Shown: positions 727-7,141 of the stretch, piece by piece
Position numbering within the stretch: the first letter of the stretch is position 1
Layout of the letters: each line of letters opens with the position of its first letter
Origin: a virus
Lineage: Duplodnaviria > Heunggongvirae > Uroviricota > Caudoviricetes
Length of the DNA stretch: 10,933 nt
IMG/VR virus record: IMGVR_UViG_2690316233_000003
Reading direction: 5' to 3' (one strand)
Position numbers and translations under genes: made by a program
The notes under the pieces: generated by a model
Database searches by the model: none
The model's input: the letters and a program-made list of their open reading frames with translations, nothing else
Told to the model about the DNA's origin: nothing

Positions 727-903
727 TCACTTCCTCGCACGATGTCTTAGCCACCGGATATCCCACAGGTGAGCCGTGTAGTTGAAGGTTTTTACGTCAG
801 ATTCTTTTGGGATTGGCTTGCGTTTATTTCTGGAGCGCTTCGTTGGAAGGTATTTGCAGTTTTCGCAGATGATGTCGGTGAAAATTCGTCGCTGTCGTCT
901 CAT
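727..903 (-). CDS. ninE: NinE-like small basic protein (58 aa)
   Basis: Not in the ORF track. ATG 903-901 overlaps the ninB stop (ATGA) and is preceded by GGAGG at spacing 5. Translation [58 protein letters not shown] resembles lambda NinE from memory. Confidence 0.65.
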
Positions 904-1310
904 TCGTACCTCCTGTCGGTAAATCTGACACCCTGACCAATAGCCCAGGCTGTTGTGTACTCGATCAGACTTGCCATACGCTTCACACTCATCTGCGCGC
1001 TACTTTCGCGAATGTTGACGTATTCGCCTTCAAGCCCGGGCAAAACATCAGCTTCCTGTTTTGTTGCCACTGCATGACCGCTGATCAACAAAACCTTCCA
1101 TTGTTCCGGTTTTAACCATTTTCCGCACCATTGAACCTGACGTGCGATATCCGCCAGCATCGCGTGAAATTTTGCGTTCTGGTCAAGGTTGCGCTTGTAG
1201 TCAGTAATGCGGATGGTAACTGGCTTGTCTTTATCGAGTGGTGTTGCGAGGATGGCGTTGATTGCGGCTTGCTGTTGTTGCTTACTTCGGAGGAAGATTG
1301 TTTGCTTCAT
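900..1310 (-). CDS. ninB: NinB (Orf-family recombination mediator)
   Basis: 136-aa ORF. The segment [44 protein letters not shown] parallels lambda NinB (...KPIVVTIQERNRSLDQNRKLWACLGDVSRQVEWHGRWLDAESWK...). Lies in the nin region downstream of the replication genes. Confidence 0.85.
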
Positions 1311-1638
1311 CGAAATTCTTCTCTTTAATTCCAGCGGCTCTGATAGCTTTCATTACTGCAATTACCGTTTTGTCACGCCCATCCTCATAACCCATCGCAT
1401 AAGCACCTTCTTCACCATCTTTCCAAAAGTCGTCATTCGATTCTGGCCAGTCGATATCCAGTTCAATAGCTGCTCGCGATGCCTGCCATAAAGTCCACCA
1501 CTCATTTAAGGAGTGACGAATATCCATGCTTGAAAATGCGAAGTACCTATCACCATTTCTTGCCTCGGTTATCATCTCGAATGGTAATCTCAATTTTTTG
1601 GCAACGTATTCCTCAAACTGCTTTCTTGATTCGTCCAT
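1282..1638 (-). CDS. hypothetical protein (118 aa), nin-region
   Basis: Track ORF 1282-1662 trimmed to the ATG at 1638-1636 (track start is a GTG). The upstream gene stop (1642-1640) is 1 nt from this ATG; the 3' end overlaps the ninB start. Product not recognised. Confidence 0.55.
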   Translation of the reverse strand: MDESRKQFEEYVAKKLRLPFEMITEARNGDRYFAFSSMDIRHSLNEWWTLWQASRAAIELDIDWPESNDDFWKDGEEGAYAMGYEDGRDKTVIAVMKAIRAAGIKEKNFDEANNLPPK

Positions 1639-1639
1639 A

Positions 1640-1855
1640 TCAATCCCCGTTAGTCGTTTCACTCACGAATCTGACAAAACCAGCCATGTTAATTTGCATG
1701 AGTTTTTTCAACACCTTGTCTCGCCGGCTACGTTTTGGTTTTGGCCTGTGGTTGAATCTTTCACAAACTGGAAGGCTTGATGATTTCCAGTACCTATTAC
1801 GCCTTGCTCCATCTTCCGCCATATCGGCATGAATAAGGCCTGCGAGTGTGCTCAT
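1640..1855 (-). CDS. hypothetical small protein (71 aa), basic
   Basis: ATG at 1855-1853 with GGAGAGG about 5 nt upstream; the track start at 1861 is a GTG directly abutting the SD. Stop is tightly coupled to the next gene. Confidence 0.5.
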   Translation of the reverse strand: MSTLAGLIHADMAEDGARRNRYWKSSSLPVCERFNHRPKPKRSRRDKVLKKLMQINMAGFVRFVSETTNGD

Positions 1856-1869
1856 ATTCACCTCTCCAG

Positions 1870-2052
1870 TTACATTGGTTTTGTAATGTTGCTAGTCATC
1901 TTACGAATAAAAAAATGCGTACGTAGCTTTGCTTCCCACATGTAAATCTCCTCAAGGCGAGATAAATCTACAAATACCGGACCTTTGTAATCTGGTCTTG
2001 ATGCCCTTATGTATGTGCTAATAGTTTGTGCATCTTGCTCGTCAAGATTCAT
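1870..2052 (-). CDS. hypothetical small protein (60 aa)
   Basis: ATG 2052-2050 with GAGGGA 4 nt upstream; overlaps the preceding gene by 11 nt, as expected for an operon. Confidence 0.5.
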   Translation of the reverse strand: MNLDEQDAQTISTYIRASRPDYKGPVFVDLSRLEEIYMWEAKLRTHFFIRKMTSNITKPM

Positions 2053-2245
2053 GACTTCCCTCTCTAACAGATTTCAGGTTATTCCACTCCGTTACCGCAC
2101 TGCGATAATTCGCGGCCGCCACAGCGGCGTGGTTAGCGCAGTAGATTTGGCACCCGTTCTCCATGTCGAATATTGTCGGTGATTTTCCACATTTACATTT
2201 TTTGGCACGCGGTGCGTCTGAACACATTCCGTTAACGGTGTCCAT
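2042..2245 (-). CDS. hypothetical Cys-rich small protein (67 aa), possible zinc-binding
   Basis: ATG 2245-2243 with GAGGGGGA upstream. Cys pattern CKCG...C...YC. First gene after the post-helicase terminator. Confidence 0.5.
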   Translation of the reverse strand: MDTVNGMCSDAPRAKKCKCGKSPTIFDMENGCQIYCANHAAVAAANYRSAVTEWNNLKSVREGSHES

Positions 2246-2269
2246 TAGGATCCCCCTCGTTCTTAATCC

Positions 2270-2301
2270 AATAAAAAAGGGCTACTGTGTAAATAGCCCC
2301 T
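2270..2301 (-). terminator. intrinsic terminator downstream of the helicase gene (tR2-like position)
   Basis: On the minus strand: GGGGCTA-tttacacag-TAGCCC stem-loop (plus coordinates 2279-2300) followed by a TTTTTTATT run (plus-strand A run 2272-2278). Confidence 0.5.
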
Positions 2302-2326
2302 GTTATTAGCTCAGTGATGTAGATGG

Positions 2327-3703
2327 TCATACGTCCGCCCCTTGTGCATATCGTCTGCCACGCGCAGCAGGTGCATTTGATGCTGTGCAAATCTGTCTGG
2401 CTTCATCCTGGTCACATGCAACAAAGTGTCCGTTACAGAACCGCTGGTAAACCGTACCAAGTGAGCCAAAACGGTTTTTCGTCACGATGATTTCAGCAAA
2501 TGGCGCGGCGCTACTGTTCTCGTCATATACCGCTTCCCGATAGAGCATGATGATTGAGTCTGCGTCCTGCTCAATGCTTCCTGAATCACGCAAATCTGCG
2601 TTTGTCGGGCGTTTGTTTGGTCGCTTCTCAACATCGCGCGAAAGCTGACTCAGGGAGATAACAGGCGTTTTCAGGTCTTTCGCCATCGCCTTCAGGCTTC
2701 CGGAGATGTGAGCAATTGCAAGGTCGTTGCGGTCTGCTTTCGGCTTCTCAATCAGGCCAAGATAATCCGCCATGATGAGTGACAGGTTTGGATTTTCCTG
2801 TTTGTGCCGTTCTGCGATTGAGCGTATTTCTTCGACCGATAACCGCGAGGCATCGACTACCCATACATCCAAATCCGCAAGCTGACTCATGCCGTTAGCA
2901 ACACGTGCCCAGCCCTCATCATCCATCGATGCAGGATTTCGCAGCACGCTAACCGACATCCTCCCGGCGTTGGCAATGCTTCGCTCTGCAATCTGCAATG
3001 CGCTCATTTCCATCGAGAAAATCAACACTCCGCGCCTGACGTCAGAACCAGGAATAACGCGGCTTGCAACGCCTTCGGCAATCTTCAGCGCCAGTTCGGT
3101 TTTCCCCATACCAGGACGAGCAGCGATTATCACAAGGTCTTCTGCGTTCATCCCTCCGGTGATGGCATCAAGTTCTTCGATTCCGGTCTTCAGGGTATCT
3201 GACTCTTCTCCGTTCCTCAGACGCCTGTCAAGCGTGTCAGTGTAGTCAGTAATGATTTCCCCTAACCGTACCGGTTTAACCTCGTCACGGGGCTTTCTGA
3301 TGGCTGAGAGACGCTTTACAAGCTCATCCATCGCCTGACTCGATGCGTCGATGGTTCCGCTCTGAATTGGTTCACGCATTTCATCCATGATTTCCAGAAC
3401 CAGACGGCGGTGATAGTTATCCGCGACCATTCCGGCATATCCCTTCAGGTTTGCGGCACTCGGGCAGTTTTTGCTGGTCATCAGGATTGACGTGAAATGC
3501 TCCTCTCCGCACGCCTCGGCAACCATCAGCGCGTCGATTAGGTTTCTGTTTCTCGCCTGCTTACGGATAACTTCGAAGGCTTTCCTGTAGAGCGGAATTG
3601 AAAACGCTTCCGGCTCAAGCGTTGCCAGAACGTCACTGGCGGTTGGAGTTAATCCACCAATCAGCAGGCCACCGATAACACTCGCTTCGATATCCTGTCT
3701 CAT
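2327..3703 (-). CDS. replicative DNA helicase, DnaB family (phage-encoded, P22 gene 12-type)
   Basis: 458-aa ORF with a Walker A P-loop ([15 protein letters not shown]) and DnaB-like N-terminal region. Its ATG (3703-3701) overlaps the stop of the O-like gene (ATGA). Confidence 0.9.
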
Positions 3704-4647
3704 GCAATCCCCCTGTCTGCAAACTTCCCTTCCCGAACTCCCGTTAACGAATCTTCTCTCAGCAAGTAATCAAAATCAGCCGTCCAGCCAGTGTCGTTGT
3801 CTCCGAAGTAAAACGGCTTGGCCTGATGCACAAACGCCCTGACATACGCTCTGAAACCGTCCACGTTTGGCGTTTTCAGTTGCGGGATGATTTTCTTCAG
3901 GCGGCGTTTGCGTTTCTCGTTGACCGCAACAGCGTGTGGCAGTCTGTCACCGACTTCGGTGTTGTAGGCGTTCAGGAAGGATTCGTAGTCGATTCGTTCT
4001 GCCTTGCGACGTTCAGGTTTAACCTGCTCATCGCCTCCCCCATTGGGGGGTAGGGGGGTATTATTTATATTCTTGTTAATACCTTCTTGTTCATGATGTG
4101 CGGTTGTTTGTGCGGCTTCATGTGCGCTTTCATGTGCGGCATGTACGCTGAAAGCCGCGCCATTACTGGCTTCATCATGTGCGGCATCATGTGCGGTTGT
4201 TTGTGCGGCTTCATGTGCGGGTGAATTGTCCATTTTTTGAGCATATTCATGGTAATTTGTGATGGTGATCACACGACCTTTTTGCTTCTCTCCATCAATG
4301 GTGATCATCCCCTCTTTCACAAAAACCTGAAGCATCCGCTCAACCTGATCACGGCTTGCTGGCTTGCCATGTCTGTCGCATAACTGAAGACCTAAATCAG
4401 CTGCTGTCACAACCAGTTGACCGGGTTGCAGATGCCATTCATGACCTTTGAAGTTCGCTTTGTATGGCTTTCTGGCGGCATTCAGGAGAAGGTTTTCCCA
4501 CAGGGTGCGAAGATAAACATCTTTCGCCCATGACTGTTTCAGAATGCTCCGGTACAACGGAATGTAACCAGTTTTCTGGTTCTCCATCCTGTTGCTCCTG
4601 CGCTCGTGTGCGGCGCTGAAATCGTAGATTTTTGCTGTATTGCTCAT
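3700..4647 (-). CDS. replication initiator, lambda O-like N-terminus; origin iterons lie inside the gene
   Basis: 315-aa ORF. N-terminus [10 protein letters not shown] resembles lambda O (MTNTAKILNF). A central low-complexity repeat (HEAAQTTAH / HDAAHDEA) is encoded by the DNA iterons. Directly followed by the helicase gene. An alternative internal start at Met21 (4587) has a better SD (AGGAG). Confidence 0.85.
4036..4225. repeat. ori-like iteron array: two clusters of four 12-bp-spaced TGTGCGG cores, an AT-rich tract and a G/C near-palindrome
   Basis: TGTGCGG (or a one-base variant) starts at 4097, 4109, 4121, 4133 and at 4178, 4190, 4202, 4214. A block of about 31 bp is duplicated (about 4096-4127 and 4188-4219). 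AT-rich segment about 4058-4090; CCCCCATTGGGGGGTAGGGGGG at about 4036-4060. This architecture parallels the lambda origin inside O. Confidence 0.7.
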
Positions 4648-5320: not shown

Positions 5321-5352
5321 GCCCTTTTTCAGGGCTGGGATGTGTAAGAGCG
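5321..5352 (-). promoter_or_regulatory. nutR (boxA + boxB) N-utilisation site
   Basis: On the minus strand: boxA CGCTCTTAC (plus coordinates 5344-5352) and boxB hairpin GCCCTGAAAAAGGGC (5321-5335), immediately downstream of the cro stop. Confidence 0.8.
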
Positions 5353-6541: not shown

Positions 6542-6571
6542 GCTCTTAAAAATTAAGCCCTGAAGAAGGGC
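6542..6571 (+). promoter_or_regulatory. nutL (boxA + boxB)
   Basis: boxA-like GCTCTTAAA at 6542-6550 and boxB hairpin GCCCTGAAGAAGGGC at 6557-6571, matching lambda nutL as I recall it. Confidence 0.85.
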
Positions 6572-6814: not shown

Positions 6815-7141
6815 ATGGATGCACAAACACGCCGCCGCGAACGTCGCGCAGAGAAGCAGACTCAATGGAAAGCAGCAAATCCCCTGTTGGTTGGGGTAAG
6901 CGCAAAACCAGTTAACCGCCCAATTCTCTCGCTGAATCGCAAACCGAAATCACGAGTAGAAAGCGCACTGAATCCGATAGACCTTACGGTGCTGGCTGAA
7001 TACCAAGAACAGATTGAAAGCAACCTGCATCGTATTGAGCGCAAGAATCAGCGCACATGGTACAGCAAGCCACGCAGTGAAATGGGTGTGACTTGTGTTG
7101 GTCGCCAGAAAATTAAATTAGGCAGCAAACCACTTATTTGA
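6815..7141 (+). CDS. N: antitermination protein N (lambda-type)
   Basis: Translation MDAQTRRRERRAEKQTQWKAANPLLVGVSAKPVNRPILSLNRKPKSRVESALNPIDLTVLAEYQEQIESNLHRIERKNQRTWYSKP... carries the arginine-rich boxB-binding motif and is near-identical to lambda N from memory. SD AAGGAG at 6803-6808. Confidence 0.95.
   Translation: MDAQTRRRERRAEKQTQWKAANPLLVGVSAKPVNRPILSLNRKPKSRVESALNPIDLTVLAEYQEQIESNLHRIERKNQRTWYSKPRSEMGVTCVGRQKIKLGSKPLI

Follow-up and report, generated by a model that had tools for sequence, protein, structure and literature searches.

Four small genes between a lambda tR2-type terminator and ninB form a mosaic accessory cassette in a lambdoid prophage

What are the four small open reading frames that lie between a replicative helicase gene and ninB in this viral DNA, and what might their products do for the phage? 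The window, which is the whole stretch of 10,933 nucleotides that was analysed, had been the subject of a sequence-only reading, in which a terminator and four tightly packed genes of unknown kind, each with a good ribosome-binding site, were placed in the ren/ninA slot. The terminator, the four genes, and the ribosome-binding sites are all present, on the minus strand. The four uncharacterised phage genes are real and lie between a lambda tR2-type terminator and ninB. As sequences they are not unknown, for they belong to catalogued families and are 96–100% identical to proteins of HK97 and of Shiga-toxin (Stx) phages. The region is an ordinary, heavily sampled mosaic accessory cassette of a lambdoid prophage.

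Gene layout and evidence for coding

The four ORFs follow one another head-to-tail on the minus strand, 3' of the helicase gene and the terminator. The upstream context is the DnaB-type replicative helicase (HK97/P22 'P'; 2327..3703, minus strand), with a Pfam DnaB_C match of 261 bits and a DnaB N-terminal domain, and the downstream boundary is ninB, encoding the Orf recombination mediator (900..1310, minus strand; Pfam NinB, 187 bits). Between them lie ORF1 (2042..2245, 67 aa; HK97 gp60 family, phrog_6308), ORF2 (1870..2052, 60 aa; phrog_21123), ORF3 (1640..1855, 71 aa; Pfam DUF7301, PF23975, and phrog_1785), and ORF4 (1282..1638, 118 aa; Phage_phiTE_015 family, PF26207, and phrog_343). The lengths of ORF3 and ORF4 are counted from ATG; a program-made ORF list gave 73 and 126 aa, respectively, each by way of an upstream GTG. 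ORF1 and ORF2 overlap by 11 nt, ORF4 and ninB overlap by 29 nt, and the spacers ORF2–ORF3 and ORF3–ORF4 are 14 nt and 1 nt, respectively. Shine–Dalgarno sequences stand 6 nt 5' of ORF1 (GAGGGGG), 5 nt 5' of ORF2 (GAGGGA), and 5 nt 5' of ORF3 (GGAGAGGTG), and a weaker one (GGGGA) stands 6 nt 5' of the start of ORF4. Rfam and tRNA scans of the window gave no matches.

The earlier reading would have been overturned by a lack of conservation or of a coding signature, and the opposite was found: the four ORFs matched PHROG profiles with E-values from 5e-31 to 4e-51 for the set, ORF3 matched a Pfam family, and all four are under purifying selection. A comparison of ORF1 with a homologue of 80% identity counted 40.5 synonymous against 17.5 nonsynonymous differences; dS was saturated and dN was 0.12. 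The dN/dS values were 0.04–0.3 for ORF3, 0.17–0.37 for ORF2, and 0.3–0.7 for ORF4. When the four proteins were scanned against Pfam, NCBIfam, and PADLOC, DUF7301 in ORF3 was the sole match; the Pfam copy used was without the PF26207 model, and ORF4 was placed through its homologues instead. Searches of PDB sequences with single sequences and with profiles gave no useful match for the four proteins, and in the literature on DUF7301, phiTE_015, and HK97 gp60 we did not find functional studies.

ORF2 has an annotated homologue of 41% identity in Serratia phage Eta. ORF3 matched DUF7301 at 105.5 bits (cut-off 27) over residues 1–64 of the 65-position model, has a basic central stretch, and differs from the phi330 copy by 6 synonymous changes and 1 nonsynonymous change. 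For ORF4, all 120 homologues among the matches listed carry a precomputed PF26207 assignment, one of them at 99% identity, and the PGAP pipeline names the O157 copy "phiTE_015 family protein". Roughly 150–220 sequenced phages, 933W and further Shiga-toxin phages among them, carry relatives of ORF3 and ORF4.

It is nevertheless conceivable that the ORFs, or part of them, are decaying remnants without function, above all ORF2 and the tail of ORF4 with its frameshift. In the O157 Stx2a phages ORF2 is cut short by a premature stop, and 8 nonsynonymous codon changes were counted there against 5 synonymous ones; the C-terminus of ORF4 varies through indels in a T-run, its final 8 residues in the window being due to a run 1 nt shorter, which lets the frame enter ninB; and PGAP leaves out ORF1 and ORF2 in two E. 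coli genomes. Because it is truncated in the O157 phages, ORF2 must at least be dispensable. Decay as a general account, however, disagrees with dN/dS values that stay below 0.4 in intact copies of ORF2 and far below 1 in ORF1 and ORF3, with protein-level homologues in phages of Serratia, Klebsiella, Salmonella, Hafnia, and Pectobacterium, and with ribosome-binding sites and coupling that are still intact. We therefore consider it highly improbable.

The terminator, NinA, and expression of the cassette

A putative intrinsic terminator lies at the lambda tR2 position (2268..2301, minus strand), with a 10-bp stem, a 5-nt loop, and a T-run; in the terminator scan the hairpin covers 2301–2277 and is followed by TTTTTTATT. 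Folded in isolation, the hairpin has an energy of −12.6 kcal/mol, compared with −15.7 kcal/mol for lambda tR2. The terminator is enclosed by a mini-ORF of 32 aa (2232..2330, minus strand), which is equivalent to HK97 gp56 and is annotated as ninA in CUS-3 and PhiR12_2. The 'ninA slot' of the sequence-only reading is thus occupied by this separate mini-ORF (2330–2232) and by none of the four genes. Lambda tR2 has been described as located within the NinA ORF (PMC4824070), and the geometry in the window agrees. Ribosomes could partly mask the hairpin, the helicase stop codon being only ~26 nt upstream (PMC4824070).

At the start of the mini-ORF lies a conserved boundary sequence, ATGACCATCTACATCACTGAGCTAATAACAGG (2299..2330, minus strand), which opens with ATGA, where the stop codon of the helicase gene overlaps the start codon of NinA. 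The same 32-nt sequence with the same ATGA overlap stands 3' of the upstream gene in lambda, and across the relatives it follows either the DnaB-type helicase or Ren. The hairpin begins 30 nt past the NinA ATG, as lambda tR2 does. The stems, in contrast, are unrelated: the window has a stem of the GGGGCTATT...AGTAGCCCC type and lambda has GGCCTGC...GCAGGCC. At the identical place, relatives have one or the other of these two hairpins. Because two unrelated stems hold one site across the relatives, we believe that the terminator structure itself is under selection. Lambda also shares the GAGAGGGAAGTCATGA junction into the next gene and the chaining of nin-region genes by stop/start codon overlaps, but in lambda ninB comes directly after tR2, whereas in the window four genes are inserted there.

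This anatomy also bears on the idea that the cassette does the work of lambda ren, protecting the phage from Rex-type exclusion. All that speaks for it is a rough map position, with the genes lying somewhere after those for replication and before ninB. In lambda, ren precedes tR2, whereas the four ORFs come after the tR2 equivalent; a custom Ren HMM gave no matches in the window; and phages among the relatives carry Ren alongside genes of the ORF1, DUF7301, and phiTE_015 families, the order being Ren, NinA, ORF1 and so on to NinB. In phages with a lambda-type P gene, Ren sits just upstream of the slot. The label 'ren slot' was accordingly wrong, the cassette filling the tR2–ninB junction, and we regard equivalence to ren as scarcely credible.

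It is also plausible, as the earlier reading had it, that expression would depend on antitermination by N. The antiterminator gene N, of the lambda type, is present at 6815..7141 (plus strand), and its translation has MDAQTRRRERRAEKQ at the N-terminus, which we take to be the lambda N arginine-rich motif. The boxB elements of nutL (GCCCTGAAGAAGGGC, 6557..6571, plus strand) and nutR (GCCCTGAAAAAGGGC, 5321..5335, minus strand) are exact lambda sequences, and a scan of the minus strand from 2330 to 900 did not find a sigma-70-like promoter. With N and both nut sites in place and no promoter detected inside the cassette, delayed-early expression dependent on N is plausible, as is the activity of the terminator, judging from the sequence. 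Early rightward transcription from pR would traverse nutR, and the N-modified RNA polymerase would pass the intrinsic terminator in the NinA mini-ORF at the tR2 position. The four small genes would then be transcribed as part of the delayed-early RNA, linked to each other and, at the end, to ninB through stop and start codons that overlap or abut.

Exchange of modules among related phages

The cassette is assembled from modules that can be exchanged, with short conserved sequences at the junctions between them. In 171 related loci the conserved order is NinA, [ORF1], [ORF2], [DUF7301], [phiTE_015], [DUF7301, Lar], NinB, in which the bracketed modules are variably present or absent and the breakpoints fall at conserved junction motifs. 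For example, the junction motif GAGAGGGAAGTCATGA (2049..2064, minus strand), which contains a Shine–Dalgarno sequence and ATGA, is identical to the tR2/ninB junction of lambda and forms the mosaic breakpoint between ORF1 and ORF2: the match to HK97 stops at position 2048 of the window, and the match to the Stx phages starts at 2064.

On the HK97 side, the gp56/gp60 region (also in CUS-3, HK446, and HK544) shares with the window the end of the helicase gene, NinA, the terminator, and ORF1 at 99% DNA identity. HK97 differs in that gp60 runs straight into ninB, whereas the window adds three genes of the Stx-phage lineage. On the other side, the ORF2-ORF3-ORF4-ninB block has 96% DNA identity to the Stx2a-converting O157 phages WGPS6, phi330, and 1717, which differ from the window in being without ORF1, in the interrupted ORF2, and in an ORF4 of 110 aa that meets ninB through an ATGA overlap. 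Genuine Lar genes (PF14354) were found in the tR2–ninB slot of E. coli MB64, of 933W-type phages, and of locus L022.

The family of ORF4 was founded on gene 015 of Pectobacterium phage phiTE, with which ORF4 shares an N-terminal frame, FEEY...WxxWQASRAAIE. Most lambdoid members, including ORF4, have a C-terminal half (WPE-NDD...GAYAMG...IRAAGIK) unlike that of phiTE_015. A minority of lambdoid members have other C-terminal halves. The next gene also differs, being Lar-like in phiTE and ninB in the window. An obligate pair of a phiTE_015 gene and a zinc-ribbon gene was considered and rejected, since ninB directly follows most phiTE_015 genes.

ORF1, Lar, and the possible function of the cassette

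Residues 1–66 of ORF1 are 100% identical to HK97 gp60, and the full-length profile match to phrog_6308 has an E-value of 3.6e-51. C8, C17, C19, C32, and H39 are invariant in the family, and position 36 is Cys in all aligned members but one aberrant sequence. In the AF2 model (pLDDT 72), a Cys loop is followed by three strands and a C-terminal helix. The conserved Cys and His residues and the modelled topology fit a putative zinc ribbon and lend support to the earlier suggestion of a zinc-ribbon-like protein. When 1.84 billion representative proteins were searched exhaustively with an ORF1 profile, and in a word-indexed search as well, only a narrow enterobacterial family came up, with no bridge to Lar, and a scan of the contigs of species-representative genomes found no real relative.

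We considered whether ORF1 could be a divergent zinc ribbon of the Lar/RalR type, which would relieve the phage genome of type I restriction during infection or replication. Lar/RalR proteins (PF14354, TIGR03655) are similar in size to ORF1, are rich in Cys in the N-terminal half, continue into a helix that carries a WN motif, and occupy the same genomic slot in related prophages. The layouts run in parallel, with C-x-C-G in ORF1 for CPFCG, then strands, C36-x-x-H39 for CxxC, and a helix AVTEWNNL for A[IV]xxWNxR, in which W and N are retained and R is not, and the AF2 model has three strands plus a helix. The local hhalign score between ORF1 and Lar was 18.4, compared with 11.1 ± 2.9 for column shuffles, of which 6 of 300 reached it; the local P-value given by hhalign was 0.003–0.01. 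A custom Lar HMM covered nearly the whole domain of the most divergent ORF1 relative (P0017), and only 6 of 2000 shuffles equalled it. In two loci (L020 and L021), ORF1-family genes lie directly 3' of a phiTE_015 gene, which is the position of Lar in phage phiTE and E. coli MB64.

On the other hand, ORF1 and 7 relatives gave no match to Pfam PF14354 or NCBIfam at E-values up to 10, the hhalign probability was 4–11% with an alignment limited to the C-terminal helix, and the ORF1 of the window scored 2.7 bits against the custom Lar HMM, built from 12 sequences, a score that 298 of 2000 shuffles reached. The CPFCG and CxxC knuckles are not kept, ORF1 having C17-K-C19-G and C32-x3-C36-x2-H39, that is, CxC and CxxH in place of two CxxC knuckles, and the large profile search yielded its narrow family only. 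MB64 and L022 carry both ORF1 and a genuine Lar, which shows that the two are not simple alternatives. Starting from the 933W-type Lar, a further search recovered only 6 proteins and did not add depth to the Lar profile. The resemblance of ORF1 to Lar is not statistically supported, and we consider a Lar-type function of ORF1 unlikely. Even more speculatively, the HK97 gp60 family might be an unrecognised and highly divergent branch of the Lar-type zinc-ribbon anti-restriction proteins, with CxC...CxxH ligands, and the tR2–ninB junction a compact anti-defence island in which DUF7301, phiTE_015, and ORF2 are inhibitors of host immunity; this seems to us quite unlikely.

Alternatively, the small proteins could be accessories of replication or recombination that work with the adjacent helicase or NinB and not against host defence. 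Most characterised nin-region genes act on DNA, such as those for NinB, NinG, RusA, and methyltransferases. Positioned between the helicase gene and ninB, the four genes are chained to the latter in translation, and a DnaB-type helicase precedes ORF1 in most loci. However, in phages with a lambda-type P gene it is Ren that precedes ORF1, genes of the phiTE_015 and DUF7301 families are found after replication genes of either type, and modules come and go beside the same helicase and the same ninB. Moreover, ORF1 is the only one of the four in HK97, and lambda lacks them all. A partnership with the helicase or NinB is in our view very unlikely.

The reading that we favour, and that is probably correct, is that of a mosaic accessory cassette in the pR operon, whose delayed-early genes are expressed by N-dependent read-through and encode products that modulate DNA metabolism or defence in the host and that the phage can do without. 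By analogy with the nin region of lambda, the products would be nonessential for plaque formation; the lambda nin genes are dispensable when Q is supplied in trans (PMC10695390). The products may bind or modulate host proteins of DNA metabolism or defence early in lytic growth, and ORF1 would act through a zinc-stabilised domain of three strands and a helix. The slot itself has a flavour of host interaction and defence, with genuine Lar within it and Ren just upstream. Being neighbours in a mosaic hot spot says little about a shared function, and most phiTE_015 genes are without a Lar or ORF1 partner.

The useful outcome of this study is a corrected anatomy of the locus, namely its strand, its NinA/tR2-type terminator arrangement, its position outside the ren slot, and its module boundaries. 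Should the proteins prove to target restriction or other host defences, a function could be assigned to four widespread families of hypothetical proteins, and the tR2–ninB junction would be worth searching for anti-defence genes.

Anatomy of the four genes

The window comprises a lambdoid early region whose rightward operon runs on the minus strand. The plus strand carries a nutL boxB (6557-6571), a cI-like repressor gene and a lambda-type N gene (6815-7141); cro, cII, a nutR boxB (5335-5321), an O-like initiator gene (4647-3700), a DnaB-type helicase gene (3703-2327) and ninB (1310-900), with ninE and ninF further downstream, lie on the minus strand. The closest records came from HK97-like, P22-like and Stx-converting phages, none extending over more than 57% of the window, a pattern typical of mosaicism. 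In the O-like protein, a repetitive stretch rich in His and Ala (~4065-4250, minus strand) coincides with ORFs of odd composition on both strands; this stretch may reflect origin iterons inside O.

Between the terminator and ninB, the minus strand encodes ORF1 (2245-2042, 67 aa), ORF2 (2052-1870, 60 aa), ORF3 (1855-1640, 71 aa) and ORF4 (1638-1282, 118 aa). The genes abut or overlap one another, ORF4 overlaps ninB by 29 nt, and a purine-rich Shine-Dalgarno site lies 5-6 nt upstream of each. The sequence-only reading had described these four genes, each with a good Shine-Dalgarno site, and on the minus-strand reading its coordinates and lengths were correct. The mechanical ORF list gave 73 aa for ORF3 and 126 aa for ORF4, because starts were taken at upstream GTG codons.

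Each ORF gave a full-length match to a single PHROG family (phrog_6308, 21123, 1785 and 343, respectively), with E-values from 5e-31 to 4e-51. ORF3 is Pfam DUF7301 (105 bits), and PF26207 (Phage_phiTE_015), a name also used by PGAP, was found on all listed ORF4 homologues. Between ORF1 and an 80%-identical homologue, synonymous change was saturated, with a dN of only 0.12. The dN/dS values were 0.04-0.3 for ORF3, 0.17-0.37 for intact ORF2 copies, and 0.3-0.7 for ORF4, the loosest among the four. A lack of conservation or of coding signature had been named as what would overturn the earlier claim; instead, the PHROG matches and substitution patterns showed that ORF1-ORF4 are genes under constraint. 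At the protein level, relatives beyond Escherichia were found for ORF2 (a 41%-identical annotated gene of Serratia phage Eta), ORF3 (Klebsiella, Salmonella and Cronobacter phages) and ORF4 (Hafnia, Cronobacter, Enterobacter and Pectobacterium phage phiTE). In the RefSeq records of E. coli UPEC_U013 and MB64, homologues of ORF1 and ORF2 are intact yet uncalled by PGAP (locus positions ~1504-1976).

The terminator and the order of modules

On the minus strand, the helicase gene ends in a TGA (2329-2327) that shares two bases with an ATG (2330-2328). The hairpin AGGGGCTATT-TACAC-AGTAGCCCTT (2301-2277, minus strand), followed by TTTTTTATT, has a 10-pair stem in the consensus scan and an isolated fold of -12.6 kcal/mol. 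The 32-nt ATGACCATCTACATCACTGAGCTAATAACAGG, which starts at the helicase stop (2299-2330, minus strand), also lies 3' of ren in lambda, H-19B and PhiR12_2; in lambda it is followed by GGCCTGCTGGTAATCGCAGGCC-TTTTTATTT and then by GGGGGAGAGGGAAGTCATGA, the start of ninB. In a published study, lambda tR2 was placed 30 bp downstream of the NinA AUG, with 16 bp between the terminator and the NinA stop (PMC4824070), and this placement matched the lambda sequence exactly. The geometry of the window's terminator is identical, whereas its stem is unrelated. Among relatives, 37 distinct versions of this segment carried either the window/HK97-type or the lambda tR2 hairpin at one site. This conservation of structure without sequence provides the strongest evidence here for a functional terminator.

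The terminator is enclosed by a 32-aa ORF (2330-2232, minus strand), which is annotated as ninA in CUS-3 and PhiR12_2 and as gp56 in HK97. Therefore, none of the four ORFs is ninA, although they had been assigned to a ren/ninA slot. The ren assignment also failed: in lambda, ren lies between P and tR2 and the tR2-ninB interval is empty, whereas the four ORFs lie downstream of the tR2 equivalent, and Ren co-occurs with ORF1, DUF7301 and phiTE_015 genes. Both hairpin types encode hydrophobic peptides in the NinA frame (L001, L018, L103 and other loci), and in phage phi330 a third variant of NinA is still hydrophobic but lacks a strong hairpin. NinA may be a genuine small membrane peptide and/or a by-product of the terminator.

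The ORFs of 171 related loci (80 chosen via ORF4, 80 via ORF1 and 11 reference loci) were classified by HMMs. The order was fixed, with modules freely present or absent: DnaB-type helicase, or lambda P and Ren; NinA; ORF1; ORF2; DUF7301; phiTE_015; a DUF7301-Lar pair (Lar being the restriction-alleviation family); and NinB. Approximately 63 of the 80 ORF1-selected loci had the HK97 arrangement (NinA, ORF1, NinB), and approximately 11 had the four-gene arrangement of the window. The whole stretch was found in one place in only 2 of 5426 complete E. coli genomes. GAGAGGGAAGTCATGA (2064-2049, minus strand), the motif of the lambda tR2/ninB junction, marks the breakpoint between ORF1 and ORF2. Both GAGAGGGAAGTCATGA and ATGACCATCTACATCACTGAGCTAATAACAGG are common to lambda and many relatives and coincide with mosaic breakpoints, and they are likely module-exchange sites.

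ORF1 and the Lar family

The ORF1 family is narrow, with 16 proteins in a word-indexed search, 8 when 1.84 billion representatives were searched exhaustively with a profile, and none in a scan of species-representative genomes. C8, C17, C19, C32 and H39 are invariant, and C36 is Cys in all aligned members except one aberrant sequence. The AF2 model, from a shallow alignment (pLDDT 72), has a Cys-bearing loop, strands at 24-28, 31-36 and 40-44, and a helix at 47-62.

This layout and the AVTEWNNL helix recall Lar/RalR (CPFCG ... CxxC ... ALERWNKR). The position is also suggestive of Lar likeness: ORF1-family genes directly follow phiTE_015 genes in two contigs (L020 and L021), and Lar occupies the same place in phiTE and E. 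coli MB64. The local hhalign score of ORF1 against Lar was 18.4, against 11.1 +/- 2.9 for column shuffles (reached by 6 of 300), and the Lar HMM gave 9.3 bits on P0017, the most divergent family member (reached by 6 of 2000 shuffles). On the window's own ORF1, the same HMM gave 2.7 bits, reached by 298 of 2000 shuffles. With hhalign against 10-12 Lar sequences, the C-terminal helix alone aligned (probability 4-11%), and ORF1 had no match in Pfam or NCBIfam. Fold searches returned nothing informative, and ORF1 and genuine Lar co-occur in some loci. Taken together, these comparisons did not statistically support membership of ORF1 in the Lar family. We believe that a Lar-like function, the only mildly new idea here, is unlikely.

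A phiTE_015-family gene lies directly 5' of a predicted zinc-ribbon gene, either Lar-like or of the ORF1 family, in the unrelated Pectobacterium myovirus phiTE (L009, 2224-2902) and in several enterobacterial prophages (L008, 2193-2692; L020; L021). The pairing is not obligate, because it is absent for most phiTE_015 genes.

The remaining genes and the proposed role

ORF2, ORF3 and ORF4 had no match in PADLOC, NCBIfam or PDB. ORF2 (1870-2052, minus strand) is intact in the window and other E. coli prophages; in the O157 Stx2a-converting phages (L001 and L007) it has a premature stop, with 5 synonymous and 8 nonsynonymous codon changes relative to the window. The ORF4 T-run (~1314-1320, minus strand) is one base shorter in the window than in the O157 Stx phages, and the stop is thus shifted, giving 118 aa and the run into ninB, whereas the 110-aa O157 form terminates at an ATGA shared with ninB. 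Databases commonly contain either form. The ORF2 stop and the T-run shift are signs of looseness.

The ORF4 model (pLDDT 72.5) has three N-terminal helices, a beta hairpin and a long helix, with no fold match in BFVD. The family keeps FExW ... WxxWQASRAAIE, with a conserved C-terminal half in most lambdoid members. Its N-terminal insert (window ~1600-1500, minus strand), 25-35 residues between motifs, is hypervariable in sequence and length, and a binding surface subject to recombination or diversifying selection could account for this. A divergent DUF7301 subtype, ~35% identical to ORF3, lies directly 5' of Lar in most classified Lar-containing loci, including the 933W type; the exceptions are L008 and L022, in which Lar is preceded by phiTE_015 or ORF1. 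In phage 2851 (L017, NC_049943; 2038-2463), the 141-aa "Lar-like restriction alleviation protein" is over-extended 5' and crosses a DUF7301-like gene out of frame; the real Lar comprises only the C-terminal 78 aa, in agreement with the PhiR12_2 annotation.

The consensus scan found no minus-strand promoter-like site within the cassette. An antisense promoter-like site inside ORF1 (2147-2176, plus strand; TTGGCA, a 16-18 nt spacer, AATATT or TATTGT) is oriented toward the terminator and the start of ORF1; the 9/12 match of this site is no better than chance expectation, and no Rfam family was found there.

Beyond the observed anatomy, selection, module structure and slot contents, we propose that ORF1-ORF4 would be expressed as N-dependent delayed-early genes through the tR2-type terminator. 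The helicase stop lies ~26 nt from the hairpin, within the range over which trailing ribosomes lowered termination efficiency in a tR2 reporter study (PMC4824070), so basal read-through may not be negligible. Lambda nin genes are nonessential when Q is supplied in trans (PMC10695390), and ORF1-ORF4 would likewise be dispensable. Overall, the observation behind the sequence-only reading was confirmed, and its interpretation held only in part. The four genes form an ordinary accessory cassette of lambdoid phages that is already catalogued, and their small products may modulate host DNA metabolism or host defence.
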